In this document: one piece after another, positions 446-64,000 of the stretch | Layout: each line of letters opens with the position of its first letter | Position numbering within the stretch: position 1 is the first letter of the stretch | DNA from: an uncultured Gammaproteobacteria bacterium | Lineage (GTDB): Bacteria; Patescibacteriota; Microgenomatia; Levybacterales; GWA1-39-11 | Reading direction: 5' to 3' | Assembly: GCA_964427615.1 (NCBI GenBank) | Contig: CAYRUR010000005.1 | Coordinates: forward strand, 15,369-79,368 | Length of the DNA stretch: 64,000 nucleotides | The notes under the pieces: model-generated | Told to the model about the DNA's origin: nothing | The model's database searches: none | Seen by the model: the letters and a program-made list of their open reading frames with translations, nothing else | Position numbers and translations under genes: made by a program

Positions 446-540
446 AGGGCGGAAGAAGTTACCAGTTTTTAAACTCCGATTTGATCGGGGTGAAGTTTTC
501 TTTTGCAAATCGCACCCTAAAATTCTAAGCTATAAATTTT

Positions 541-598
541 GCCGTCATCGCGGAGGAAGGATAGTTCCTGTGGCGATCTCTTTTCGTAAGGGGATTGC
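541..598 (-). repeat. GC-rich intergenic repeat element, copy A (reverse complement of the copy at 9927-9985)
   Basis: The reverse complement of 541-598 (gcaatccccttacgaaaagagatcgccacaggaactatccttcctccgcgatgacggc) aligns over ~58 nt with 9927-9985. The copy is flanked by two similar hairpins, ccgatttgatcgggg (476-490) and ccccgagttgatcgggg (630-646). Confidence 0.6.
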
Positions 599-629
599 TT
601 TATAAACTTTACGAACTTTATAACTTTAC

Positions 630-660
630 CCCGAGTTGATCGGGGTTTATAAACTTGTTG
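630..660. terminator. Hairpin (ccccga-gttga-tcgggg) plus T-rich tract; possible bidirectional terminator between the convergent YtxH-like gene and mntH
   Basis: 6-bp GC stem, 5-nt loop, followed by tttataaacttgttg. Sits between convergent genes. Confidence 0.3.
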
Positions 661-730
661 TCTTCCAACTCGTTAATTCGTTAATAACTAATAAATAATA
701 ACCTAATCGCTAAACACTTTTCTTCCTGTC

Positions 731-2053
731 TTATACAAAAAAACTAATACACAAGAGAATAGAGGCAGTAAACATGACAATAGTAGTGGTCCATCCAATA
801 ATATTTACTCGTCTTGTGTTTTGATATCCTCTCATTATTTTCGGATCATTTGAAATGAACATAATAAGTGCTAAAAGTGGCGGAGCAATAATGCCATTGA
901 GTACTGCCGTGTAATACAGAATTTCAAAAGGTTTTATAGATAGAAAATTGACGGTAAGACCGATGAGAGTAGCTATGGTAATTACTCCATAAAATCCATG
1001 CGCCTGATTCAATTTTCTATAAAGACCAGCATTCCATCCAAAAGCTTCTGAAACGGCATACGATGCAGAACCAGCTAGCACAGGCACTGACAAAAGACCA
1101 GTACCAATAATGCCTAAAGCAAATAGAAATGCAGCAAAATCACCTGCAACAGGCCGTAGTGCTTGTGCTGCCTGATCTGCTGTTTCAATATGCGTAATGC
1201 CTTGCATGTGGATGGTAGAAGCAACAGTTGTGATAATAAAGAACATGATGAGATTGGAAAAAAGCATACCGATCATGGTATCTTTTTGCATGTGAGAGAG
1301 GTCCTTTTTAGTAATTTTGGGAATTCCTTTTCCCATCATGCGGAGTTTATGTGTTGCAATCTCTTCTTCTACAACTTCATTGGCTTCCCAGAAGAAAAGG
1401 TAAGGGGAGATGGTAGTTCCTAAAATTGCAACGATATTAAAGATATAGGCTTTATTTAGCTGAAAACTTGGAATAAGGGTTGATACAAATACTGTTTTCC
1501 AATCAATATTCACAACAAAAGCTACCAGAACATAGGCAAGGAGGGAAAAAGCAAGAAATTTAAGATACTTAGCATATACCTGGTATGAAACAAAGACTTC
1601 CAAAATAAGCGTAATGACAGTCATCACTATCAAAAGCAAGGCAAAAGGAAGGTCAATAAGTAATCGTGCAGAAGCAGCCATAGCTCCCAAATTAGCTCCA
1701 ATATTAATTGCATTTGCTATCAGTAATAAAAGAATAGTAGGGTAAAGAATTTTTTTAGAATAGTGTTTTCTAATCACCCCTGAAAGGCCGTTTCCGGTAA
1801 CCATCCCAATTCTGCCACATGTTTCTTGGATTACAGTCATGAAAGGAAAGGAAAAAAAGGCAAGCCACAGTTGAGAATAACCAAACATTGCCCCAGTCTG
1901 TGCATATGTGGCAACACCCGAAGGATCATCATCTGCTGCACCAGTAATAAAGCCTGGACCTAACCCTCTAAAAAATTGTTTTATTTTTTTCATTCCTTTA
2001 TGTATTGTGTAACAAAATGTTTCTTTTCTGCAATATGCAATTATTATTTGCAA
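731..2053 (-). CDS. mntH: NRAMP-family divalent metal (Mn2+/Fe2+) transporter
   Basis: 440 aa, multi-TM. Contains the Nramp signature GPGFITGAADDDPSGVATY. Confidence 0.9.
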   Translation of the reverse strand: MQIIIAYCRKETFCYTIHKGMKKIKQFFRGLGPGFITGAADDDPSGVATYAQTGAMFGYSQLWLAFFSFPFMTVIQETCGRIGMVTGNGLSGVIRKHYSKKILYPTILLLLIANAINIGANLGAMAASARLLIDLPFALLLIVMTVITLILEVFVSYQVYAKYLKFLAFSLLAYVLVAFVVNIDWKTVFVSTLIPSFQLNKAYIFNIVAILGTTISPYLFFWEANEVVEEEIATHKLRMMGKGIPKITKKDLSHMQKDTMIGMLFSNLIMFFIITTVASTIHMQGITHIETADQAAQALRPVAGDFAAFLFALGIIGTGLLSVPVLAGSASYAVSEAFGWNAGLYRKLNQAHGFYGVITIATLIGLTVNFLSIKPFEILYYTAVLNGIIAPPLLALIMFISNDPKIMRGYQNTRRVNIIGWTTTIVMFTASILLCISFFV

Positions 2054-2442
2054 ATATACTCACAAATAATATCTATTGTCTCTTTGTTCCCTTGCTGCAA
2101 TTTTTGTAAATCAGTAATAACTTTTTGAATTGCAGCAGTTGAAGAGGTGAAATTTTCCGAAGTAATATTGGCAAGCTGGCTTTGTGCATTCTGGATAATC
2201 TGCTCAACATCTTTTTTTGTCGGAATTTTTACGTTTTCCGGAGGCGTATACTCTTTGGGAATAGCATGAGAACTGGATTTTTCAAGAGAAGAAGTATCAG
2301 ATGGCCATAACAACATACCTGCAGCAATAAGCATCACTAAAATGATAAAGGCTATAAAAAGACGAGGTTTACTCCACTGTTGCTCTACCACCTCTTCTTT
2401 GAGTGTTTGTTTTTCCCCTACATTTTTTTCTATCTTTTTCAT
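2044..2442 (-). CDS. hypothetical membrane-anchored protein
   Basis: 132 aa with one N-proximal TM (LFIAFIILVMLIAAGMLLW). No recognisable domain. Confidence 0.4.
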   Translation of the reverse strand: MKKIEKNVGEKQTLKEEVVEQQWSKPRLFIAFIILVMLIAAGMLLWPSDTSSLEKSSSHAIPKEYTPPENVKIPTKKDVEQIIQNAQSQLANITSENFTSSTAAIQKVITDLQKLQQGNKETIDIICEYICK

Positions 2443-2544
2443 TTTTTACTTAAAGATACTTTTATTATGGGGAAAAATTACAGTATTCGTCAATGGAGGG
2501 GATTAGTGTATAGTGATTAGAAAATTAGTAAAAAGTTTGTAAAG

Positions 2545-2610
2545 AAATCAGAGAACGGAAAACAAGATTCAGGATTTAAGATTTAGGATTCAAGAATAAG
2601 TATAAAATAT
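2545..2610. repeat. Intergenic repeat modules (aaatcagagaacggaaaacaag plus degenerate ttaRgaWt heptamer-like run); same modules recur at 9822-9890 in swapped order
   Basis: aaatcagagaRcRgaaaacaag occurs at ~2545 and ~9867. gattcagga followed by taag/ttagga/taagaat repeats occurs at 2566-2606 and 9828-9862. Confidence 0.5.
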
Positions 2611-2698
2611 TGGACAAAAAGTCAAAGCTTAGAAATCAAAATTCAAAAATACATGTCAAAAGTAAAAAGTTTGAAATGAGATACTGGTTAGGATGAGC

Positions 2699-2940
2699 CC
2701 AAACTAGACATGTCATCCTGAACTTGATTCAGGATCCAGGAAAAAAAGATATAGATTCCAAATGCAGTTTGGAAAATTACAGGCTTTGTAAAGGCTTAAA
2801 GTAAAACGAAGCTTTTAACTTTTAAACTGTGCTTTGCTATACTCAGCATCCTGAGCTTGTCGAATGGATACTTTTGCCTTTTGACTTTTGAGTTTTTAGA
2901 TTTAACATTTAAGCTTCTTTATTTTACATCCTGAATCTGC
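2699..2940. repeat. Three copies of the atcctgaRcttgWYgaa motif in the prfB upstream gap; the first copy is a perfect hairpin (atcctgaa cttga ttcaggat)
   Basis: Copies at 2702-2725, 2836-2858 and 2917-2936. A fourth copy at 9903-9923 (aatcctgagcttgtcgaagga). Confidence 0.5.
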
Positions 2941-2967
2941 TCATGATACAATCATGAGGTATTTATT

Positions 2968-3981
2968 ATGGAGAACCTCAAAGAAAGAGCCGAAATTTTG
3001 TTAAACCGTATTAATCTTGAAGAACGGCAAACAAAGATAAGAGAGATAGAATCTCTTTCTATGGATCCTCTCTTTTGGCAAGACACTCAAAAAGCAACAG
3101 AACAAATGAAAACGTTAGCTGCTTTGCAAAAGGAAGTAGATGATGTTGAAAAAATAAGACAGCTGCTTGAACAGGAAAAATATGAAGAATTACAGTCCTT
3201 AGTAGAAGAGTTAGAGCTTTTTATTTACCTTTCAGGAGAATACGATAACCACAATGCAATTCTTTCCATTCATGCAGGGCAAGGTGGTGCAGATGCTATG
3301 GATTGGGCCTCTATTTTGTTTAGGATGTATTCTCGTTACTGTGAGCGCAAAGGCTGGAAGTATGAAATCATTGACTATAATGCAGGAGAGGAAGCAGGGA
3401 TAAAAAACGTGAGTCTTTTAATAGAAGGTGATCATGCTTTTGGATATCTAAAAGGAGAGCAGGGTGTGCACAGACTCGTTAGGCTTTCTCCTTTTAATGC
3501 TGACCATTTGCGTCATACCTCTTTTTCTTTAGTAGAAGTATTGCCCCAAATTGAGGAAGTAAAAGGAGTAGAGATAAAAGAAGATGATTTAGAATGGGAA
3601 TTTTATAGAGCCTCAGGGCACGGAGGACAAAATGTGCAAAAGGTTTCAAGTGCTGTAAGAGTAAAACACAAGCCGACAGGACTTGTAGTTACTGCCCAAA
3701 CAGAGCGGTATCAGGCACAAAATAGAGAATATGCCTTAAAGATACTGAAAGCAAAATTATGGGCACTTCAGGAGGAAAAAAGGAAAAAAGAGGAAAAAGA
3801 AATGAAAGGTGGCTATACGCCTCCCTCCTGGGGAAATCAAATTAGAAATTATGTCATGCATCCATATCAGATGGTAAAAGATACGCGCACAGGACAAGAA
3901 ACAGGAAATGTAGAAAAAGTTTTAGATGGAGATATAGATAGTTTTATAGAAGCAGAGTTAAAGATGGCAGATAAAATATAA
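2968..3981 (+). CDS. prfB: peptide chain release factor 2
   Basis: 337 aa with the SPF motif (RLSPFNADH) and the GGQ motif (GHGGQNVQK). Single uninterrupted ORF with no +1 frameshift site. Confidence 0.9.
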   Translation: MENLKERAEILLNRINLEERQTKIREIESLSMDPLFWQDTQKATEQMKTLAALQKEVDDVEKIRQLLEQEKYEELQSLVEELELFIYLSGEYDNHNAILSIHAGQGGADAMDWASILFRMYSRYCERKGWKYEIIDYNAGEEAGIKNVSLLIEGDHAFGYLKGEQGVHRLVRLSPFNADHLRHTSFSLVEVLPQIEEVKGVEIKEDDLEWEFYRASGHGGQNVQKVSSAVRVKHKPTGLVVTAQTERYQAQNREYALKILKAKLWALQEEKRKKEEKEMKGGYTPPSWGNQIRNYVMHPYQMVKDTRTGQETGNVEKVLDGDIDSFIEAELKMADKI

Positions 3982-4162
3982 AGGTTTCTTCCTTAATTTC
4001 ACCTCATTTATTTTTTTCTTACTATTTGGTCAGCATAAGGTCTTTTTCAAGTGAAAATAGCTACTTTTATTTGGCATTTGATCTACGCTTTTCTACTGAG
4101 AAGCATAGAGCAAATAGCTTGTAAATTATTTTAAAATGTGATTTACTATTAGAGAATTGTTT

Positions 4163-4621
4163 ATGGAAAAGAAACCTGCCGTTCTGCACAATTTTGAAGG
4201 CAAAGCTGCTTCAAATTCTTCTCGAAAAGTATTTATAGTGCTTCTTGTTTTTCTATTACTTGGTGGTCTTACTGGGTATGGTGTGGCTAGCTTTACAAGC
4301 AATGGATCTTCTCTCTCTTCGGACTCAGGTGAATCATCACAAAACAATACTAATATCAAAAAAGGAACAGTGGTAGGTGTGCAAGATGAAAAGACATTTA
4401 CTGATAACGCAGAAGGCGTACTTCGTGATGGAGGTATAGAGGGTGAAGGTACTCATCATCTTGAAAGACCAGGAGGAGAGTCTCAAAACGTATATCTTAC
4501 TTCATCTGTTTTAAATCTTTCAGACTTTGCAGGAAGGAAAATAAAGGTGTGGGGAAAGACATATGCAGGAGAGAAAGCAGGGTGGTTAATGGATGTGGGA
4601 AGAGTACAGGTATTGGACTAA
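4163..4621 (+). CDS. hypothetical membrane-anchored secreted protein
   Basis: The ORF opens at TTG 4157; ATG at 4163 is the likely start. One TM (VFIVLLVFLLLGGLTGYGV) followed by a Ser-rich region. Confidence 0.4.
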   Translation: MEKKPAVLHNFEGKAASNSSRKVFIVLLVFLLLGGLTGYGVASFTSNGSSLSSDSGESSQNNTNIKKGTVVGVQDEKTFTDNAEGVLRDGGIEGEGTHHLERPGGESQNVYLTSSVLNLSDFAGRKIKVWGKTYAGEKAGWLMDVGRVQVLD

Positions 4622-4652
4622 CAACTTAAATTAGACTGTTTGCTAAAAACAC

Positions 4653-5408
4653 ATGATTAAATTCCAGAATGTTTCAAAACAATATGGTAAGGAGACGCTT
4701 GTTCTTGACGACGTTTCTTTTGTGATAGATCCCGGAAATTTTGTATTTCTCGTTGGTCCTACTGGTGCGGGAAAGACCACTATTTTTCGCATGCTTATCA
4801 AAGACTTAGAGCCGTCTTCAGGTGATATTTACTTAGGAGATTGGCACTTGGCAAAGCTTTCAGGGAGTAAAATTCCGCATTTAAGAAGAAAAGTCGGAAC
4901 CATATTTCAAGACTTAAAACTACTTATGGACAGGACGGTTATTGAAAATGTGATGTTGCCGTTGATGGTTGCGGGAGTGGGGGAAAAAGAAGCAAAAGGA
5001 AAAGCAGAAGAGGCACTTTTTAACGTAGGGCTTGGTGGAAAAGAAATAAAATTCCCACTGCAGCTTTCAGGAGGAGAAAGACAACGAGTGGCAATTGCCA
5101 GAGCTTTGATTTTTGAACCTGAAGTGCTTTTGGCAGATGAGCCAACCGGAAATTTGGATCTACAAACATCTTTGCAAATCCTTGATCTGCTGGATAGCAT
5201 TAATAAAAAAGGTACAACGATTCTCATGGCAACGCACAACGACACGATTATTGAAAAAACTGATAAGCGAATTTTAATGATGGAGAAGGGAAAGCTTGTC
5301 AAGGATAAAGACGCAAAAAAGAAAGAAAAAGAAGCAGAGACTCCAAAAAAAGAGGAACAACCAGATGAAAAAGAAATGAAAGGAGAAAAGAAACATGAAA
5401 CATCTTAA
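4653..5408 (+). CDS. ftsE: cell division ATP-binding protein FtsE with Lys/Glu-rich C-terminal tail
   Basis: MIKFQNVSKQYG, Walker A GPTGAGKTT, ABC signature LSGGERQRVAIARAL. Directly followed by ftsX. Confidence 0.85.
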   Translation: MIKFQNVSKQYGKETLVLDDVSFVIDPGNFVFLVGPTGAGKTTIFRMLIKDLEPSSGDIYLGDWHLAKLSGSKIPHLRRKVGTIFQDLKLLMDRTVIENVMLPLMVAGVGEKEAKGKAEEALFNVGLGGKEIKFPLQLSGGERQRVAIARALIFEPEVLLADEPTGNLDLQTSLQILDLLDSINKKGTTILMATHNDTIIEKTDKRILMMEKGKLVKDKDAKKKEKEAETPKKEEQPDEKEMKGEKKHETS

Positions 5409-6264
5409 AACAGTTACCAAATATATGCGGCGTTCGCCATATCAGTCTGTTTCGGCAGCATTGATTATGACGCTTACTTTCTTTGCGGTAACCGTGTTTG
5501 CTCTTTTGACGATTACTTCACTGCGTTTCATGAACTATTTCGAATCTCGTCCCCAATTGACTATTTTCTTTACTGAATCAGCAACAGTTGAAGATATTGC
5601 TAACATGAAAGCTCAGTTAGAGGCAACAGGTAAGACATCATCTATACGTTACATTTCCAAAGAAGATGCTCTGAAAATTTACCAAAGATTGAATGCAAAT
5701 GACCCTTTGTTACTTGATTTAGTTACTGCTGAAACACTTCCTGCCTCACTTGAGGTACAGCCTACAAAAGCAGAGTACCTTTCAGACTTAGCACGGATGG
5801 TAAAAGATGCTCCTAATATAGAGCAGATTACATACCAAGAGGATATGGTAAAAACACTTATTGCTTGGATCAACGCATTCAAAGGAATTGGTATAGCAGT
5901 GATTGCAGTCTTGGCAATGGTATCTACTTTTGTCATTTTGACTATTATTGGCATTAAGATAACCGTTAGGAAAGAAGAAATTAATATCATGAAGCTGATG
6001 GGTGCATCTCATTGGTTCATTCGTATGCCATTTTTGGTAGAGGGAATGATTTATGGATTTATTGGTTCACTGCTCGGATGGATTGTGTCTGTCTCTCTTT
6101 TGCTCTATTTCACGCCGACACTGCAAACTTTCTTTAATAAGCTGCCAGTATTTCCTTTGCCTCCTGTAGTGTTGGTAGAGTTGCTGATACTAGAGGTGAT
6201 TTTCGCAAGTATATTAGGGATGTTTGCCAGTTTTATAGCTGTTCTTCGATATTTAAGAACATGA
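5395..6264 (+). CDS. ftsX: cell division permease-like protein FtsX
   Basis: 289 aa, N-terminal TM, large extracytoplasmic loop, then 3 C-terminal TMs. Overlaps the ftsE stop. Confidence 0.8.
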   Translation: MKHLKTVTKYMRRSPYQSVSAALIMTLTFFAVTVFALLTITSLRFMNYFESRPQLTIFFTESATVEDIANMKAQLEATGKTSSIRYISKEDALKIYQRLNANDPLLLDLVTAETLPASLEVQPTKAEYLSDLARMVKDAPNIEQITYQEDMVKTLIAWINAFKGIGIAVIAVLAMVSTFVILTIIGIKITVRKEEINIMKLMGASHWFIRMPFLVEGMIYGFIGSLLGWIVSVSLLLYFTPTLQTFFNKLPVFPLPPVVLVELLILEVIFASILGMFASFIAVLRYLRT

Positions 6265-7475
6265 GGAAGGTATATACATGGATCATCAGGATATTTTTAA
6301 TTGTTGCTGTACCTGTCTTTGTGTTTAAAACAGGGTTAGTCCTTGCGCAGACCACTACTCCTACTCCAACTCCTGATTCATCAAGTAAGGTAGCAGATCT
6401 CCAAAAAAAAATAGATGAGTTAGAAAAAGCGATTGCCCAAAAAAAAGAAGAGGGAAGAACGATTTCAAACCAGATTAGTGTTATGGATAATCAGATACGC
6501 GTAACAGAACTCAGGATTAATGCAACACAGGCAAAAATTAATGAACTGGAAAAAGACATTACCGTTACTAAAGATAAAATAGGAGGACTTGAAGATAACA
6601 TTCATACCTCTGTGTCCACCATGCTCGGAAGAATTACAGCTACTTACACTGTTGGAAGCATTAACCCTTTTGAGATCTTACTTACCTCGGACACGCTTGA
6701 GAATTTCATGAAGCGCTTGACGTATTTAAAAATTGTGCAAGCAGCAGATAAGAAGAACTTATATGCTGCAGAACAGGCAAAAGTAACATATGCACAAGAA
6801 AAAGAAAAGTTAGAGCAAAAACAGCAAGAGACAGAAGATCTGCGTAAAAAATTAGATGAATATACATCCCAAATTGAAGGTGAGAAAGCACAAAAAAAGA
6901 ATCTACTTGATGCAACAAAAAATGATGAAAAAAAATATCAGCAAATGTTGGCTCAAGCAAAAGCACAAATAAATTCCTTTAAGTCTTTTGCAAGTTTTAG
7001 TGGAGGATCTATTCTTCCTGCTCAAGCCAGTCCTGATGGATGGTATTACAACCAACGAGATGAGAGATGGGGAAAAAATACTATTGGTGCATCTTCTGAA
7101 AGAGTTTGGGAAGTAGGCTGTCTGGTAACAGCAACTGCAATGCTTCGTAAACAAAGGGGAGAGAATGTTACCCCTGCAGATGTTGCTGCAGAGCAAAGTT
7201 ACTTTTTTGCAGATACTGCTATGATGTCTATTCCTTGGAATGGTGGTAGATTTACATCTAGAAGTAAGGATATGGGGGCTATTGATAGTAAGCTTGCCAA
7301 TGGAACACCAGTTATAGTAGGTTTGAATGCAGGACCATATGGTACTCATTTTATCGTTCTTAAAAGTGGATCAGGTGGTAGTTATGTTATGAATGATCCA
7401 TGGAATGGGGCTAACCTTAATTTTTCAAGCTACTACTCAGTGGGCCAAATTTTCCAATATGGGTATTTAAATTAG
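6261..7475 (+). CDS. EnvC/PcsB-like coiled-coil protein with C-terminal C39-like (Peptidase_C39_2-type) cysteine peptidase domain
   Basis: Signal/TM segment, TPTPTP linker and long coiled coil (LENFMKRLTYLKIVQAADKKNL resembles EnvC/PcsB). C-terminal region has Cys in EVGCLVTATAML and His in GTHFIVLKSG...NDPWNG. Overlaps the ftsX stop by 4 bp. Confidence 0.7.
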   Translation: MRKVYTWIIRIFLIVAVPVFVFKTGLVLAQTTTPTPTPDSSSKVADLQKKIDELEKAIAQKKEEGRTISNQISVMDNQIRVTELRINATQAKINELEKDITVTKDKIGGLEDNIHTSVSTMLGRITATYTVGSINPFEILLTSDTLENFMKRLTYLKIVQAADKKNLYAAEQAKVTYAQEKEKLEQKQQETEDLRKKLDEYTSQIEGEKAQKKNLLDATKNDEKKYQQMLAQAKAQINSFKSFASFSGGSILPAQASPDGWYYNQRDERWGKNTIGASSERVWEVGCLVTATAMLRKQRGENVTPADVAAEQSYFFADTAMMSIPWNGGRFTSRSKDMGAIDSKLANGTPVIVGLNAGPYGTHFIVLKSGSGGSYVMNDPWNGANLNFSSYYSVGQIFQYGYLN

Positions 7476-7616
7476 TTTATTGCTCCAAAAGATTATTGAT
7501 CGCAACTTCCTGGTTTTGCATAGAAATAATCTAGCTTATCATTTCTGTTTTCTACTCATCTAACTAACTTTGAGATTTTTTGCTTCTTGTAAAGATAAGT
7601 TGTAGTATAAAAAGAG

Positions 7617-8474
7617 ATGCGTAAAAAGTTCTTTACACTTCTGGTTTTTACTCTTATTTTCTTTATTTTTCCTTCCTCTCTTTTTGCTGATGAAGGTAAT
7701 TTGGTGATTAATGAGTTTTCATCTTATGATTCGGATGATTGGGTAGAAATATATAACAATGGAGATAGCATTAAAAATCTTTCTGCTTATTTTTTGCAAG
7801 ATGATGCAGGGAACTCTAAGCCATTAACGGGAGAGATACAGCCACATGAATTTGCCGTGTTTGGATTTGGAAAGAGCCTTGATAAGCAGGGAGATATTAT
7901 TAGACTTTTAAGAGTAGATGACGAATCAAAAGATGTAGATAAAGTCGCATATGGAAATGAAAGTGGTGCTGTTGTTCCTGCACCTGAAAGTGGTCAATTG
8001 GCAGGGAGGAAAATAGATGGGAAAGGGGAGTGGGTTATTTTTACTTCTCCTACAAAAGGTAAAACGAATAATGGCGCTCAACTTTTCCCTACTCCCACTC
8101 CAACACCTACGTTGACTCCTACCCCAACAAAAGCAAAAAATACTCCTACCCCAAAAGAAGAAGCAACCCCTACTCAAGTGGCTACTCCAACTGAAACTGC
8201 AAAACAAGAAATTACTTCAAAAAAAGTGCCAAAAAGGCTTTATCAAGTACCAGATGCTATTACTCAAAATGGATCGTTATCTGCTAATCTAGAAGATGTT
8301 TTGTCAGCGAGTGATGATGCTTCACCTGAATCCACAGTATCAACTACTTCTGCAAGAGAAGAGGGAGATGCGTCAGGAAGTGGAAAATTTTTTATCTCAG
8401 CAGGAATTATCTTTTTTATTGCCTGTGCCATCGTGCTTTACCGCAGGTACATAAATGGTTCAGAAGATATATAA
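7617..8474 (+). CDS. surface protein with lamin-tail-domain (LTD)-like N-terminal domain, PT-rich linker and C-terminal TM anchor
   Basis: Signal peptide; LVINEFSSYDSDDWVEIYNNG is LTD-like; linker PTPTPTPTLTPTPT; C-terminal hydrophobic FFISAGIIFFIACAIVLY. Confidence 0.55.
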   Translation: MRKKFFTLLVFTLIFFIFPSSLFADEGNLVINEFSSYDSDDWVEIYNNGDSIKNLSAYFLQDDAGNSKPLTGEIQPHEFAVFGFGKSLDKQGDIIRLLRVDDESKDVDKVAYGNESGAVVPAPESGQLAGRKIDGKGEWVIFTSPTKGKTNNGAQLFPTPTPTPTLTPTPTKAKNTPTPKEEATPTQVATPTETAKQEITSKKVPKRLYQVPDAITQNGSLSANLEDVLSASDDASPESTVSTTSAREEGDASGSGKFFISAGIIFFIACAIVLYRRYINGSEDI

Positions 8475-8482
8475 TAAATAGC

Positions 8483-8917
8483 ATGGAAAAGGTTATTATT
8501 ACCAAAACAGAAGAAGAGACACAAAACGCAGCAGCAGAGTTTGCTCAAAGTCTGAAACCAGGAACAGTAATTTGTCTGTATGGAGAATTAGGAGCAGGGA
8601 AAACCACATTTTCCAAAGGTTTAGCTCGCGGTCTTGGTGTATCATCTCGGATTATTTCTCCCACGTTTACTTTAGTTAGACAGCATCAAATACAGGAGGG
8701 AAAAGGGACGTTATATCATCTTGATTTATATCGTCTAGAACGTGAAGAAGATGTACGGGGAATCGGTTTTGAGGAAATGGTGCAGGATAAAAATGGAATT
8801 ATGCTGATTGAATGGGCTGAAAAATTAGGGAAATTACTTCCCTCAAAAAGAATTGATATTCGACTTGAAGCGGTATCTGCTGCTGAGCGAAAAATAAGTA
8901 TTCAAGAAAGAATGTAG
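8483..8917 (+). CDS. tsaE: tRNA threonylcarbamoyladenosine biosynthesis protein TsaE (YjeE ATPase)
   Basis: 144 aa with P-loop GELGAGKTTFSKGLARGLGV, typical of YjeE/TsaE. Confidence 0.8.
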   Translation: MEKVIITKTEEETQNAAAEFAQSLKPGTVICLYGELGAGKTTFSKGLARGLGVSSRIISPTFTLVRQHQIQEGKGTLYHLDLYRLEREEDVRGIGFEEMVQDKNGIMLIEWAEKLGKLLPSKRIDIRLEAVSAAERKISIQERM

Positions 8918-9228
8918 CCTCTTTTCCCTCTACTTTTACCAAAGTCAGATTATTGTCAGGAATACGTTTTCTCTTCGTCAAGCACCCTATTCTCTTATCC
9001 GGTATCCTCTTAATCAGATAGAAACAAATGATGGAGGTGAAGGATTTATGTATTTAATAAGACATGATTACAAATATCTCAATAAGTACCTAAATTTCTA
9101 TTTTGGATATATGCAAAAGGAAAACGTCCTTTACAAGAAAGAGAAAAAGCAAGAAAAACAAAAACGTAAGTAAGCATTACCTATTATGAAAGCTTTTAAA
9201 TTCTCTCAATTCGTTTATAATATCCCTA

Positions 9229-9822
9229 ATGGAAAGAGAGGCCCTCCGGGCAATTGATATTTTAAAAAAAGGTGGCGTTATTGTTTTTCCCACAGATACT
9301 GCATTTGGAATTGGTTGCAGAGTTGATAATGAAAAAGCAGTAGAAAGAATTTTTGCGATAAAAGGAAGAGATGAGCGTAAAGCTACTCCAGTTCTGGTTT
9401 CCTCAATAGATATGGCTCAACAATATGTTGATGATATTCCCTCTGGAGCCTATCAACTGATGGAAAAATATTGGCCTGGTGCTTTGACTATTGTTTTACC
9501 CAGTACTCAAGCTCAAGTACCAACTCTGGTTACTGGTGGTAGTAATTCATTAGGGGTCAGGATGCCAGACTATTTTTTACTGTTACAAATAATTGAGGCA
9601 GTTGGTGTGCCCCTAATAGGCACTTCCGCAAATCTCTCAGGGGAAAATACACCCTTTACTGTTGAAGGACTTAATCCTTCTCTTGTAAGACAAGTAGATA
9701 TGGTTCTTTCCGGATCATGTAAAATAAAACAGCCGTCAACGGTTGTAGATTACACACAAACTCCTTATCGGATTTTGAGAGAAGGTGCGATACGGTTGGA
9801 GAAAGAGATTCAAGATTTATGA
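9229..9822 (+). CDS. tsaC: L-threonylcarbamoyladenylate synthase (YrdC/Sua5 family)
   Basis: 197 aa. VIVFPTDTAFGIGCRVDNEKAVERIFAIKGRDERKATPVLV matches the YrdC fold. Confidence 0.8.
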   Translation: MEREALRAIDILKKGGVIVFPTDTAFGIGCRVDNEKAVERIFAIKGRDERKATPVLVSSIDMAQQYVDDIPSGAYQLMEKYWPGALTIVLPSTQAQVPTLVTGGSNSLGVRMPDYFLLLQIIEAVGVPLIGTSANLSGENTPFTVEGLNPSLVRQVDMVLSGSCKIKQPSTVVDYTQTPYRILREGAIRLEKEIQDL

Positions 9823-9990
9823 TTCAGGAATAAGAATTACGAATTAGGAATTAAGAGAAGAAAACAGAAATCAGAGAGCAGAAAACAAGCGTCATTGCGA
9901 GTAATCCTGAGCTTGTCGAAGGAGAAGCAATCCCCTTACCTACAGGGATCGCCACAGGAACTAATCGTTCCTTCGCGATGACGAGGTAGT
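9822..9990. repeat. Composite intergenic repeat region between tsaC and tsaB, containing copy B of the GC-rich element with ~12-nt imperfect flanking inverted repeats
   Basis: 9827-9862 gattcaggaataag... module; ~9867 aaatcagagagcagaaaacaag; 9903-9923 atcctgagcttgtcgaagga; 9927-9985 matches the reverse complement of 541-598. cgtcattgcgag (9890-9901) and its partner cttcgcgatgacgag (9971-9985) form an imperfect inverted repeat. Confidence 0.55.
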
Positions 9991-10038
9991 TCACTCTTTA
10001 GAATTTCGAATTTAGTGCTTAGAATTGAACATTTAACC

Positions 10039-42790: not shown

Positions 42791-43003
42791 CTATCCTTGC
42801 CCAAAACCAGTAGTAGGTGGTCTTACAGGCCTCTCAGTTGGTGTTGGAGTAGTATCTCGGTCTCGATCTTGGGTGGGTGTTGGAGAAACTCGTCTTGTAT
42901 CTTCTGTTGGTGTCGGTGTTTGTGTTTGAGCGTTTACGATCACAGTTGCTGCAAAAAAAGATACTACTAAAGACAAAACTGATATTGCTAAAATCTTTCG
43001 CAT
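42791..43003 (-). CDS. small secreted Pro/Thr-rich protein (70 aa) encoded immediately upstream of the sortase
   Basis: Strong SD (AAGGGGGTGA) 4 nt before ATG 43003. Signal peptide MRKILAISVLSLVVSFFAATVIVNA, then a TPTPT-rich mature region ending TTGFGQG. No LPXTG. Confidence 0.5.
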   Translation of the reverse strand: MRKILAISVLSLVVSFFAATVIVNAQTQTPTPTEDTRRVSPTPTQDRDRDTTPTPTERPVRPPTTGFGQG

Positions 43004-43156
43004 AAAATCACCCCCTTTCATACATGTATTGAGTAATATAGAGTCTTTCTATAAAAGCAGAGTTAAATACGCGTAAGAATAAAATAATAAATGTAGAGTG
43101 TTAACTGCTCTGTGATGTAAAATACTTCTTTAAAAGAAAGAGGTAAAAAGGTGCAT

Positions 43157-43399
43157 TTATTTTCTTTCCACTGTAATAGTGCATTCAGTAACGAGTGCAG
43201 CAATTGCTCCGATAGCTGCTAGGAAGGGTGCAAACACAGCTCCTACCATGCCAATAGTCAATGGAAATTCCGCGATTGTTTTTCCTTCTTTATCACTAAT
43301 AATTATCCTTCTAACGTTCCCTTCCCTAATAATCTCCTTTACTTTTTGGATAAGTTCCTCTCCTTTTACGGTAAATGTTTCTTTTTTACTTTGGTTCAT
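43157..43399 (-). CDS. DUF4342-like protein
   Basis: VKGEELIQKVKEIIREGNVRRIIISDKEGKTIAEFPLTIGMVGAVFAPFLAAIGAIAALVTECTITVER. Start taken at MNQSKK. Confidence 0.55.
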   Translation of the reverse strand: MNQSKKETFTVKGEELIQKVKEIIREGNVRRIIISDKEGKTIAEFPLTIGMVGAVFAPFLAAIGAIAALVTECTITVERK

Positions 43400-43480
43400 A
43401 TTGCTACTTTTATCTTCCTTTGAAGAGGCATTATAAATGAAAAAATAAGTTATACAGTAAGAAAGGTGCAAGTATTTTTA

Positions 43481-55525: not shown

Positions 55526-55792
55526 TTATATGTTTGGAGTTAAAGATGCTGTTACGAGTTCTTCTTTTTTGGCTTTTGTTAACTTCTTTAACTGGCTTTC
55601 TCTTCGCATTGCCTCCGATCGTGAATCATGTATTTCTGTATAAACTAGTTGGAAAGAAGAAAAGGATCTGACGTATTTTGATGATTTTTTATTTTTTCCC
55701 TGATGTTCTCTTATTCTTCTTATTACATTATTTGTCTGTCCAATATAGAGCGTGTTGGAAGAAGTACGTAAAATGTAGACAAAATAGAGCAT
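55526..55792 (-). CDS. GIY-YIG nuclease superfamily small protein (UPF0213-like)
   Basis: LYFVYILRTSSNTLYIGQTNNVIRRIREHQ. Start at MLYFVY (55792). Confidence 0.7.
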   Translation of the reverse strand: MLYFVYILRTSSNTLYIGQTNNVIRRIREHQGKNKKSSKYVRSFSSFQLVYTEIHDSRSEAMRRESQLKKLTKAKKEELVTASLTPNI

Positions 55793-63724: not shown

Positions 63725-63852
63725 TCTTTTTGTAGGTATCCCTATTTTTTAAAATTGGTGAATATCAATTTATCTTTTTTAGAATAGGGGGTCATTGTTT
63801 CTTTATACTATTGCGATAACCAGTGAGATATAGAAAAAGAGCACACAGGGAA

Positions 63853-63960
63853 GAGATAGGATAGAGGTTGGGAAGTATTCCCGCTGTTAACAGTGGGAAA
63901 CTTCCCATGTCCTCCTATCAAGCTATGGATTGTTTCGTTTACGTGTATGTCTCCATAGCC
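63853..63960. other. Highly structured non-coding region: ~65-nt three-segment near-perfect hairpin (63855-63919) followed by a second 8-bp hairpin (63921-63959)
   Basis: Outer stem gatagga/tcctatc, middle tgggaagt/acttccca, inner ttcccgctg/cagtgggaa with ttaa loop. Second hairpin gctatgga...tccatagc. No T-run follows. Confidence 0.4.
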
Positions 63961-64000
63961 ATAATCTCCACCAAAGGTTGTCGACTTTCTGACTTAGGTA

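Follow-up and report, generated by a model that had tools for sequence, protein, structure and literature searches.

Neisseria NIMEs and Escherichia coli BIMEs consist of hairpin repeats interleaved with short modules in variable order within enlarged spacers; NIMEs are composed with RS units and BIMEs with A/B/L/S motifs. GTAG-tagged REPs and REPINs, which are moved by RAYTs, are small palindromes bearing a tag; they occur in spacers as inverted doublets and are suspected of being non-autonomous mobile DNA. The superfamily of CGTC-tagged REPs (Di Nocera, De Gregorio & Rocco 2013, BMC Genomics 14:522; PMC3733652) includes Rickettsia RPE-4 and RPE-6 and also Neisseria dRS3/NTS, the single-stranded DNA (ssDNA) target of the GIY-YIG nuclease SsnA (Chenal et al. 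2025, Nat Commun 16:2388; PMC11893778). According to Di Nocera et al., the Neisseria CGTC-1 units are clustered in mosaic intergenic regions (PMC3733652).

Here we analyse a 64-kb stretch of DNA (the window) from a Microgenomates-type CPR bacterium, a host outside the five phyla listed for CGTC-tagged REPs (PMC3733652). We estimate a probability of about 0.68 that three of its gene spacers, regions A, B and C (Table 1), are intergenic mosaics of REP-type tagged hairpin repeats of the CGTC-tagged/NTS-like superfamily. The modules reported in an initial annotation of these spacers are confirmed as real and as a type of short DNA hairpin repeat that is already known and very widespread; two GC-rich modules are pan-bacterial sequences previously described as CGTC-tagged REPs or NTS-like motifs. 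Because the spacer repeats are of the same type as the hairpin cut as ssDNA in Neisseria, the locus adds a further example to a known class.

Tagged hairpins in three gene spacers

The modules are confined to regions A, B and C, with no further copy in the window or in the adjoining 6.9 kb on the left and 6.8 kb on the right. Their cores reach a GC content of 0.43–0.49 in surroundings of roughly 0.26–0.45, mostly below 0.40, and are four tagged hairpins of one architecture: YGTC / AT-stem / loop or inner hairpin / stem-AT / C. The pattern YGTC-AT(xyz)...(z'y'x')AT-C yields 4 hairpins against 0.8 expected, a count reached by 1 of 200 dinucleotide shuffles, and all are found outside open reading frames (ORFs), in DNA that makes up 8.4% of the window. 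In this plan a unit comprises an unpaired 5′ YGTC tag, an AT-starting stem, a 5-nt loop or inner hairpin, an AT-ending closing stem and an unpaired C(Y) tail. The YGTC-AT...AT-C architecture shared by the GC-rich modules had been overlooked in the initial annotation, as had the pan-bacterial nature of two of them.

Table 1. Features of the window discussed in the text. TRF, detected with TRF.
Position	Strand	Feature	Remarks
446..730	.	Region A	spacer between convergent genes
473..491	+	terminator-like hairpin ACTCCGATTTGATCGGGGT, then T-rich tail	first of near-identical pair
543..580	+	tagged hairpin, window-private type, copy 1: CGTC-ATCGC-GGA[GGAAggatagTTCC]TGTG-GCGAT-C	inverted copy of 9945-9983
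581..600	+	spacer and GGGGATTGCTT	reverse complement of region C left-arm hairpin 3′ end (AAGCAATCCCC)
598..629	.	degenerate period-8/9 array (CTTTATAA)	TRF
628..646	+	second near-identical hairpin ACCCCGAGTTGATCGGGGT	
682..707	.	degenerate period-7 array (TAATAAC)	TRF
731..2442	-	two-gene block (Nramp and 132-aa gene)	orientation opposite to that in syntenic relatives; A and B at its ends
2443..2967	.	Region B	525-nt spacer upstream of prfB
2516..2549	+	33-nt segment	resembles reverse complement of 593-625 (region A)
2545..2566	+	module AAATCAGAGAACGGAAAACAAG, copy 1	
2563..2595	.	period-7 array CAAGATT x4.7	TRF; gattcagga/ttaRgaat module of the initial annotation
2711..2738	+	canonical tagged hairpin TGTC-ATCCTGAA-CTTGA-TTCAGGAT-CCA	8-bp stem, 5-nt loop, CCA tail
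2845..2870	+	degenerate copy aGC-ATCCTGAGCTTGTCGAATGGAT	tag gone, 3′ half mutated, fold lost
2870..2896	.	period-7 array ACTTTTG x3.9	TRF
2926..2947	+	degenerate 5′ half tAC-ATCCTGAATCTG	overlaps predicted prfB promoter
9823..10014	.	Region C	192-nt spacer between tsaC and tsaB
9834..9887	.	two period-7 arrays, GAATTAC x2.9 and AGAAAAC x4.1	TRF (9834-9853, 9859-9887)
9890..9934	+	dimer left arm CGTC-ATTGC-GAG[..]GAA-GCAAT-CC	pan-bacterial GTCATTGCGA..GAAGCAATC family
9904..9923	+	second-family hairpin ATCCTGAGCTTGTCGAAGGA	nested in left-arm loop
9935..9944	.	short spacer	separates the two arms
9945..9983	-	dimer right arm, window-private, copy 2: CGTC-ATCGC-GAA[GGAACgattaGTTCC]TGTG-GCGAT-CC	
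9997..10026	.	period-7 array TTTAGAA x4.3	TRF
55526..55791	-	gene for 88-aa single-domain GIY-YIG nuclease	45 kb from repeats

The inventory comprises the canonical unit 2711–2738, a tails-facing dimer (9890–9983) whose left-arm loop carries a second hairpin, a solo dimer right arm with a left-arm stump (543–600) and two decayed copies (2845–2870 and 2926–2947). All hairpin units are embedded among degenerate AT-rich period-7 arrays, which bears out the heptamers noted earlier; TRF finds no such arrays in the other 15 window spacers of at least 100 nt. Region A combines a solo tagged hairpin, a partner remnant (581–600, left by a former dimer partner), AT-rich short-period arrays and two terminator-like hairpins, the near-identical pair already recognized as flanking this copy, of which the window holds no third. 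In region B, one perfect hairpin and two degenerate copies form a mosaic with AT-rich arrays.

The 2711–2738 hairpin, correctly singled out in the initial annotation as a perfect one, has every feature of a published CGTC REP, namely a CGTC/TGTC tag, an AT-starting stem of 8–9 bp, a loop of 4–5 nt and a CCA tail (PMC3733652), and its flanks TGTCAT...ATCCAG fit the NTS flanks CGTCAT...ATCYRG (PMC11893778). The other three of the four units fall outside the published definition (8–9-bp stem, 4–5-nt loop), because their outer stem is only 5 bp long and their inner parts are interrupted by G.A mismatches or an extra hairpin. A search of the window with the published SRM string gives no match, and a loose tagged-hairpin definition gives about 20 chance matches per Mb in unrelated Lachnospiraceae DNA. 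As ssDNA, the right arm 9945–9983 folds at −8.9 kcal/mol (z = −3.5); the fold drawn for the left arm is not obtained under nearest-neighbour DNA parameters.

Regions A and C are linked by an inverted copy. Positions 562–600 match the reverse complement of 9925–9963 over 39 nt at 90%, and with gaps allowed the alignment lengthens to 59 nt (6 mismatches, 1 gap) and scores 81, where shuffles reach at most 30, in agreement with the reverse-complement relation proposed for 541–598 and 9927–9985; the core GATCGCCACAGGAACTA occurs exactly twice. The reported aaatcagagaRcRgaaaacaag module is likewise present, as AAATCAGAGARCRGAAAACAAG at 2545 and 9868 with 0 copies expected, and the AGAAAAC array runs into its second copy, AAATCAGAGAGCAGAAAACAAG (9868–9889). 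The motif ATCCTGARCTTG..AGGA lies at 2715, 2848 and 9904 with 0–2 mismatches (7 matches in total against 1.06 expected), with a weaker copy at 2927, so that the atcctgaRcttgWYgaa copies listed earlier exist and exceed chance, although they had been placed about 10 nt too low. The similarity of region B to the reverse complement of region A is marginal, its score of 30 barely topping the best shuffle (29), and 2516–2549 is a candidate inversion substrate or scar.

Spread across phyla and changes among relatives

Two of the hairpin families are spread across phyla. Both are represented in the left arm of the region C dimer, and they occur in contigs of 30–72% GC. The GTCATTGCGA..GAAGCAATC family is present in at least 120 IMG/VR contigs (30–72% GC), in which Y precedes GTC in 175 of 183 copies and follows ATC in 180 of 183; its inner region forms a hairpin of at least 3 bp in 36% of cases, against 3% in shuffles, and adjacent inverted pairs among the 183 copies have tails facing in 19 instances and tags facing in 0. 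The exact 20-mer of 9904–9923 recurs in 38 IMG/VR contigs (31–72% GC), and the same nesting is seen again (L029). Named hosts of the wide families are Novosphingobium, Methylobacterium, Methylosinus, Legionella, Aulosira, Hymenobacter, Microvirga and Gloeothece; a plasmid of N. aromaticivorans, a CGTC-2 species (PMC3733652), carries the left-arm family. The 2711–2738 type has 82 matches in IMG/VR. The right-arm type (9945–9983) has no copy in IMG/VR or JGI metagenomes, and the right arm and its copy in region A are private to this genome.

In addition to the tag, AT-starting stem, 5-nt loop and CCA tail, the window repeats share with CGTC-tagged REPs the mostly inverted dimers, the intergenic position and the lack of a linked transposase. 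The CTTGA loop of 2711–2738 also appears in the Ssn-flanking hairpins compared here and can be deduced, by back-translation, from VIAGLDPAIH and VIPWLDHGI, peptides given for CGTC-3 and CGTC-4 repeats. They differ from CGTC-tagged REPs in an AT-rich inner stem, the interruption of three of the four stems, the nesting of one unit in another, the accompanying period-7 AT-rich arrays and a low local copy number (4 units within about 78 kb of genome). The mosaics resemble NIMEs and BIMEs in their interleaving, variable module order and enlarged spacers, but their companions are degenerate heptamer arrays and one 22-nt module, and the regions are much smaller.

Comparison with syntenic relatives shows that the DNA of regions B and C is absent from the same spacers: the tsaC–tsaB spacer measures 192 nt here against 55 and 26 nt, and the spacer upstream of prfB 525 nt against 45 and 100 nt. 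The two-gene inversion relative to these genomes is bounded by regions A and B. One relative (L265) carries a dimer of its own at a spacer closed in the window, and a Levybacteria contig (L254) has a dimer containing a near-identical copy of the 2711–2738 hairpin; hairpin pairs of this kind sit in different spacers in related genomes. The extra DNA, the differing spacers and the inversion make the earlier suggestion of a mobile or recombining element family broadly right, although these are not strict MITEs.

Weighing other explanations

The hairpins might instead act mainly at the RNA level, as intrinsic terminators or as mRNA-protecting 3′-end stabilizers like those proposed for E. coli REPs. 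Regions A and C do lie downstream of genes, hairpin 473–491 scores as a terminator, the full C element can fold as a long stem (−18.4 kcal/mol, z = −3.5), and many REPs are downstream of ORFs and plausibly transcribed, according to Di Nocera et al. (PMC3733652). We nevertheless consider this rather unlikely, since region B separates divergently transcribed genes, a setting that calls for no terminator, none of the tagged hairpins is followed by a T-run, and the YGTC tag and C tail, conserved and unpaired, serve no purpose in termination. Moreover, the tagged strand in IMG/VR contigs is more often antisense (20) than sense (7) to both flanking ORFs, and SsnA does not bind the RNA form (PMC11893778). 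It is very improbable that the modules encode small structured non-coding or cis-regulatory RNAs, as had also been proposed: they are GC-rich islands with hairpin potential in AT-rich spacers and region B sits in the prfB leader, but an Rfam scan at gathering and E<=10 thresholds came back empty, these hairpins turn up beside unrelated genes in different phyla, and the copies are truncated, nested, inverted and reordered in ways that a functional RNA would not tolerate. The sole characterized partner of this hairpin class binds ssDNA, not RNA (PMC11893778).

Quite improbable, too, is an origin as MITEs, that is, internally deleted insertion sequences (ISs) with terminal inverted repeats (TIRs) moved in trans by a transposase encoded elsewhere. 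The C element (9890–9985) is about 96 nt long and is bounded by the imperfect inverted repeat described in the initial annotation, the relatives' spacers are without it, and assembly graphs break at the repeats. Yet its 'TIRs' are two different self-contained REP-type units that are also found singly, with no more than the 19 tails-facing pairs among the 183 left-arm copies counted above; no direct duplication flanks the C element or the L254 and L265 dimers; and CGTC repeats had no associated transposase in the work of Di Nocera et al. (PMC3733652). The window itself holds no IS or transposase. Nor does it hold a RAYT or IS200-like gene, and its tag is YGTC rather than the GTAG of REPINs. That low-complexity intergenic DNA produced these similarities by chance is scarcely credible: the resemblance of reverse-complemented A to B is marginal and the loose hairpin definition has a real background, but the 59-nt A/C score, the expectation of about 0 matches for the 22-mer and 17-mer and the exact 20-mer in 38 viral contigs refute a chance origin of the core modules.

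A GIY-YIG gene and a possible ssDNA mechanism

If the spacers are mosaics of NTS-like repeats, the units probably act as DNA. By analogy with Neisseria NTS and SsnA, the tagged strand would form its hairpin when it becomes single-stranded as DNA is taken up, replicated or repaired; a small sequence-specific GIY-YIG nuclease would bind it, recognizing the C that follows the stem and the GTC that precedes it, and cut a few nucleotides upstream, so that incoming ssDNA might be shortened or its recombination limited. As double-stranded DNA, the repeats may also supply short homologies for rearrangement. The GTC before the palindrome (cleavage) and the C after it (binding) are kept in all four units, and the nested and inner-hairpin units fit NTS, whose loop is reported to accept inserted DNA (PMC11893778).

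The window encodes a small single-domain GIY-YIG protein of 88 aa that is 35% identical to N. gonorrhoeae SsnA and 32–38% identical to hairpin-flanked Ssn-type proteins, and equally close to UPF0213 proteins (1zg2, 50.6 bits) and SsnA (46 bits). The C-terminal NPxWxDLY tail that these Ssn-type proteins carry is missing from it. No hairpins lie beside its gene and its clade is rarely repeat-flanked, with an SRM within 5 kb at 6 of 79 loci and adjacent at 1, whereas 71% of Ssn homologues were repeat-associated in a published survey (PMC11893778). This gene is the sole candidate for a trans-acting partner in the window, an inferred role unsupported by the association test.

Hairpins adjoining Ssn-type GIY-YIG genes in Shinella and Sinorhizobium read CGTC-ATCCTCGGG-CTTGA-CCCGAGGAT-CCA and have the tag, first five stem bases, loop and tail in common with 2711–2738; Rhizobium has a close variant, ATCCCAGGG. 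The published NTS flanks are present at the N. gonorrhoeae ssnA locus. A 70%-identical CPR homologue of the window protein (L311) is preceded, at the canonical position about 30 nt upstream, by an NTS-like hairpin.

Tagged hairpin units in three spacers

The window is AT-rich and densely packed (non-ORF DNA, 8.4%), and three of its spacers carry repeat modules: regions A (446-730), B (2443-2967) and C (9823-10014). The modules that the initial annotation had described there from the sequence alone are borne out. An inverted copy shared by A and C is recovered as 562-600, the reverse complement of 9925-9963 (39 nt, 90%); with one gap the match grows to 59 nt and scores 81, against a shuffle maximum of 30. 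A 22-mer, AAATCAGAGARCRGAAAACAAG, occurs at 2545 and 9868, with 0 expected, and the motif ATCCTGARCTTG..AGGA at 2715, 2848 and 9904, with a weaker copy at 2927. The two near-identical hairpins said to flank the copy in A exist (473-491 and 628-646) and are the sole two of that kind in the window. What had been read as heptamer modules are degenerate period-7 arrays, present in A, B and C. All six such arrays of the window lie inside these regions and none in the 15 other spacers of at least 100 nt, and they are therefore part of the same mosaics; the 22-mer and the heptamers thus amount to degenerate arrays plus one 22-nt module. The string CGTCATYGCGA is found at 543, 9890 and 9973(-). Nothing similar to the modules was found in the remaining 54 kb of the window, in the 6.9 kb to its left (contig L242) or in the 6.8 kb to its right (contig L485). 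The repeat family is real. A full-text literature search with the sequences themselves returned only unrelated PCR primers.

Four units share one architecture, in which YGTC is followed by AT and three bases, then by a centre, then by the complement of these bases with AT, and finally by C. Dinucleotide shuffles of the window contain 0.8 such units on average and reached four in 1 of 200 cases; all four lie in spacers, and they are the only ones in about 78 kb of this genome (window plus flanks). GTC stands directly 5′ and C directly 3′ of the palindrome in every unit. As single-stranded DNA, the unit at 2711 forms a perfect 8-bp stem with a 5-nt loop. The stems of the other three also start with AT and have five perfect pairs; beyond these come G.A mismatches or an inner hairpin, and the centres are 13-23 nt long. 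Tails are CCA in the 2711 unit, CCC in both arms of region C and CTC in region A.

Positions of the tagged units, the period-7 arrays and the candidate nuclease gene
Feature	Position	Strand	Sequence or match
Unit in region A (copy A)	543-580	+	CGTC-ATCGC...GCGAT-C
2711 unit, region B	2711-2738	+	TGTC-ATCCTGAA-CTTGA-TTCAGGAT-CCA
Left arm, region C	9890-9934	+	CGTC-ATTGC-GAG...GAA-GCAAT-CC
Right arm, region C	9945-9983	-	CGTC-ATCGC...GCGAT-CC
Degenerate period-7 (to 9) AT-rich arrays	598-707, 2563-2595, 2870-2896, 9834-9887, 9997-10026		
88-aa single-domain GIY-YIG gene	55526-55791	-	PF01541, E = 2e-18

Folded as single-stranded DNA, the right arm of region C reaches -8.9 kcal/mol (z = -3.5) and the whole element -18.4 kcal/mol (z = -3.5); the left arm fails to adopt the fold drawn here, because the energy model gives G.A pairs no credit. 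Region C is thus a dimer of two unlike units whose tails face each other; copy A consists of a right-arm unit with a left-arm stump (AAGCAATCCCC), and decayed copies lie at 2845-2870 and 2926-2947. The GAGG ribosome-binding site of prfB is covered by an 8-bp hairpin at 2940-2958; prfB itself is a single uninterrupted ORF (2968-3981) without a +1 frameshift site.

Placement among known repeats

CGTC-tagged REPs, as defined by Di Nocera et al. 2013 (PMC3733652), carry the tag CGTC, TGTC or CCTC, stems of 8-9 bp starting with AT, loops of 4-5 nt and a CCA-like tail; they occur mostly as inverted dimers, in five phyla, have no associated transposase and include dRS3 of Neisseria and RPE-4/6 of Rickettsia. 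Their copies number tens to thousands per genome. The 2711 unit agrees with this definition in every respect (tag, 8-bp AT stem, 5-nt loop and CCA). More broadly, CGTC or TGTC opens all four window units, their tails are short and unpaired, and inverted dimers occur in region C and in two relatives, the Levybacteria contig L254 and the locus L265; the 4-5-nt loop, in contrast, is not matched by 543-580, 9890-9934 or 9945-9983. The repeats differ from GTAG REPs of the REPIN-RAYT kind in their tag, YGTC rather than GTAG, and Pfam searches gave no Y1 transposase among 27 ORFs (21-50 kb) and three small ORFs, nor did precomputed Pfam calls elsewhere in the window. The family is best filed as a member, hosted by the candidate phyla radiation (CPR) and arranged in small mosaic regions, of the CGTC-tagged REPs and hairpins like NTS, the Neisseria target of the GIY-YIG single-strand DNA nuclease SsnA. 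Hairpin repeats of the CGTC/NTS type are thereby extended to a CPR genome.

Three other readings are less well supported and rank below this filing. The hairpins might be transcription terminators. The initial annotation had favoured either a small mobile or recombining element family or a family of small structured RNAs. A MITE should have terminal inverted repeats, a target-site duplication and a related autonomous IS. Inverted ends are limited here to the two hairpin units that make up region C; no consistent target duplication surrounds any of the three dimers (region C, L254 and L265), and the window contains no IS or transposase, which leaves the mobile-element proposal poorly supported in its MITE form. 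The structured-RNA proposal fares no better in an Rfam scan, in which nothing in the 64 kb reached the gathering threshold; at E ≤ 10 there were three unrelated sub-threshold matches in the 64 kb, none of them in spacers A, B or C, and a tRNA and tmRNA scan found nothing in the spacers.

Distribution and rearrangement

Two of the hairpin types recur far outside this genome. The 20-mer ATCCTGAGCTTGTCGAAGGA, which sits within the left-arm loop at 9904-9923, has exact copies in 38 IMG/VR contigs of 31-72% GC. One of the viral contigs (L029, 31% GC) repeats at 7140-7210 the nesting of window 9890-9934, with the ATCCTGAGCTTGTCGAAGGA hairpin inside a GTCATTGCGA...GAAGCAATC loop; the inner unit of this composite retains its own TGTC tag. 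The outer pattern, GTCATTGCGA...GAAGCAATC, occurs in at least 120 viral contigs of IMG/VR. Among the IMG/VR matches listed for the left-arm family, a pyrimidine precedes GTC in 175 of 183 and follows ATC in 180 of 183, the inner region forms a hairpin far more often than in shuffles, and adjacent inverted pairs have their tails facing in 19 cases and their tags facing in 0. The 2711 type, GTCATCCTGAA-loop-TTCAGGATC, gave 82 matches in 54 stretches of 28-71% GC. Some phage contigs (L450/L439, from IMGVR_UViG_3300028845_000195; L447/L457; L465) hold 4-9 copies of it on a single strand, and among intergenic copies 20 have the tagged strand antisense to the ORFs on either side, whereas 7 have it in the sense direction of both ORFs. 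Plasmid records name Novosphingobium (at least 40 places within one replicon), Methylobacterium, Methylosinus, Legionella, Aulosira, Hymenobacter, Microvirga and Gloeothece as hosts, and none of these records annotates the hairpin sequence. The type shared by the right arm and copy A had 0 matches in JGI metagenomes, and its 17-mer core had only two chance matches in IMG/VR, both in coding DNA. On these matches, two of the types are pan-bacterial and the right-arm type is private to this genome.

We also considered one continuous covarying stem, GTCATNNNGAG..CGAANNNATC, and rejected it: the complementary triplets were TGC/GCA in 172 of 176 complementary matches, and at loci new to that scan only 2 of 89 matches were complementary. 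The hairpin families are therefore discrete and not one covarying structure. In control loci from Lachnospiraceae, a loose hairpin definition yields a background of weak 5-bp matches.

Homologue names place the window in a CPR lineage of Microgenomates type (Levybacteria, Woesebacteria, Patescibacteria group). A scan of genome contigs with FtsX as the query found Lachnospiraceae only, at 24-36% identity, and no orthologous loci; the window species is therefore absent from the GTDB representatives. Synteny was instead established through TsaC homologues and exact-protein look-ups, the closest relative being 61% identical in TsaC. Two of the relatives' loci (L264 and L265) retain the order Nramp-prfB-...-ftsE-ftsX-...-tsaE-tsaC-tsaB, with spacers much shorter than those of the window: 55 and 26 nt versus 192 nt between tsaC and tsaB, and 45 and 100 nt versus 525 nt between Nramp and prfB. 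L265 has a dimer of its own (TGTCATCCTGAGCCTACAGGCGAAGGATC / TGTCATTCTGAACGTAGTGAAGAATC) in a spacer whose counterpart in the window is closed, and the dimer of the Levybacteria contig includes the 2711 hairpin with 27 of 28 bases identical. The block 731-2442, comprising Nramp and a 132-aa gene, has the opposite orientation to its counterparts in L264 and L265; its breakpoints coincide with regions A and B, which have a 33-nt segment in common in inverted orientation (marginal significance). Independent Logan short-read contigs of this organism (ends of L001 and L242) stop exactly within repeats, at window positions 2848, 9924 and 627, and the repeats therefore fragment assemblies. The organism is present in runs SRR7082966, SRR7082968 and SRR7082976, and an NCBI contig of 92.5 kb encodes identical proteins. 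For annotation, the repeats account for enlarged spacers in otherwise compact CPR genomes, for a local inversion and for breaks in short-read assemblies.

TsaC of the window has about seven extra C-terminal codons (9799-9822) which, together with the stop codon, lie within the start of the AT-rich array; in relatives the protein stops 0-4 residues past the conserved REGAxxL, apart from one whose tail has 10 residues. A Woesebacteria relative (L244, 15619-18074) has two LAGLIDADG endonuclease ORFs, probably rRNA introns, in an otherwise ORF-poor stretch. Neither an ORF of at least 110 aa nor an Rfam match is listed for window 42791-43480 (690 nt) or for the stretch of about 946 nt from window 63725-64000 into L485 1387-2333; on its minus strand, the latter seems to contain an uncalled ORF for a membrane protein.

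Relation to Ssn targets and a candidate GIY-YIG partner

In Neisseria, NTS (CGTCATTCCCGCGMAVGCGGGAATCYRG) is bound and cut by the 94-aa GIY-YIG protein SsnA as single-stranded DNA only and on the tagged strand only; binding depends critically on the C after the palindrome and cleavage on the three bases before it, whereas insertions in the loop are tolerated (Chenal et al. 2025, PMC11893778). SsnA reduces the integration of transforming DNA, and Ssn genes are typically flanked by the motif (PMC11893778). The published string for the Ssn-related motif (SRM), HGTCWYN(0-2)YYVSBRHN(0-5)WNVSBRGN(0-2)RNCYNB, matched the NTS and NTSvar controls and had 0 matches in the window, because the inner stems there are AT-rich or the centres long. 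In its current form it overlooks whole hairpin families, namely those with AT-rich stems, with G.A-interrupted stems or with nested units. These families are nevertheless conserved across phyla and on phage contigs, so that counts from surveys of Ssn targets are probably too low.

For comparison, Ssn-type loci were recovered from a plasmid collection that includes a misfiled N. gonorrhoeae chromosome; PLSDB files two complete chromosomes of this species, each of about 2.17 Mb, as plasmids (NZ_CP119140.1, our L486, and NZ_CP119142.1). The N. gonorrhoeae SsnA orthologue has Y6, Y17 and E64 as in PMC11893778, and seven NTS copies surround its gene within 1.7 kb. Ssn-type genes of Shinella, Rhizobium, Sinorhizobium and Azospirillum are likewise flanked by hairpins, of the form CGTC-ATCCTCGGG-CTTGA-CCCGAGGAT-CCA in Shinella and Sinorhizobium and a variant, ATCCCAGGG, in Rhizobium. 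The comparison covers the 2711 unit: the Shinella and Sinorhizobium hairpins have the same tag, first five stem bases, loop and tail, and the inner stem alone differs. This likeness is the strongest evidence for grouping the 2711 hairpin with Ssn-flanking motifs. By analogy, the repeats may be targets of a single-strand DNA nuclease.

A candidate for such a nuclease is the 88-aa GIY-YIG protein encoded in the window. Its sequence identity is 35% with SsnA of N. gonorrhoeae and 32-38% with other Ssn-type proteins; UPF0213 proteins are equally close, and the C-terminal NPxWxDLY tail of Ssn-type proteins is missing. No hairpins lie beside its gene, nor beside the second small GIY-YIG gene, which is located 6.5 kb outside the window (L485, 8107-8510). 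Across the clade (643 kb of metagenome), an SRM lies within 5 kb in 6 of 79 loci, against a published counterpart of 71% for Ssn homologues (PMC11893778), and is adjacent to the gene in 1 of 79; L311 alone is arranged canonically, CGTCATTCCCGCGAAAGCGGGAATCTAT lying about 30 nt upstream of the GIY-YIG gene.

In a further reading, CPR bacteria, which depend on the uptake of foreign DNA, would have a single-strand restriction system of the Ssn/NTS kind of their own, in which the targets would be AT-rich-stem and nested YGTC hairpins, invisible to the published SRM string, and the nuclease would be the abundant CPR clade of about 88-aa GIY-YIG proteins, as distant from SsnA as from UPF0213. Conservation of the hairpins would then reflect the spread of specificities between phyla: matched nuclease and hairpin specificities would have spread, leaving hairpins of 20-26 nt exact in hosts of 30-72% GC. 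We consider this reading unlikely, with a probability of a little under one in five. If a CPR GIY-YIG protein does cut these hairpins as single-stranded DNA, it would bring new specificities to a young enzyme toolbox and tie CPR DNA scavenging to the control of recombination. As a separate observation on the GIY-YIG genes of this clade (window 55526-55791 and loci L266-L344), 11 of 79 loci have a tRNA gene, mostly tRNA-Gln, no more than 400 nt upstream, and the second small GIY-YIG gene adjoins a tRNA-like sequence.
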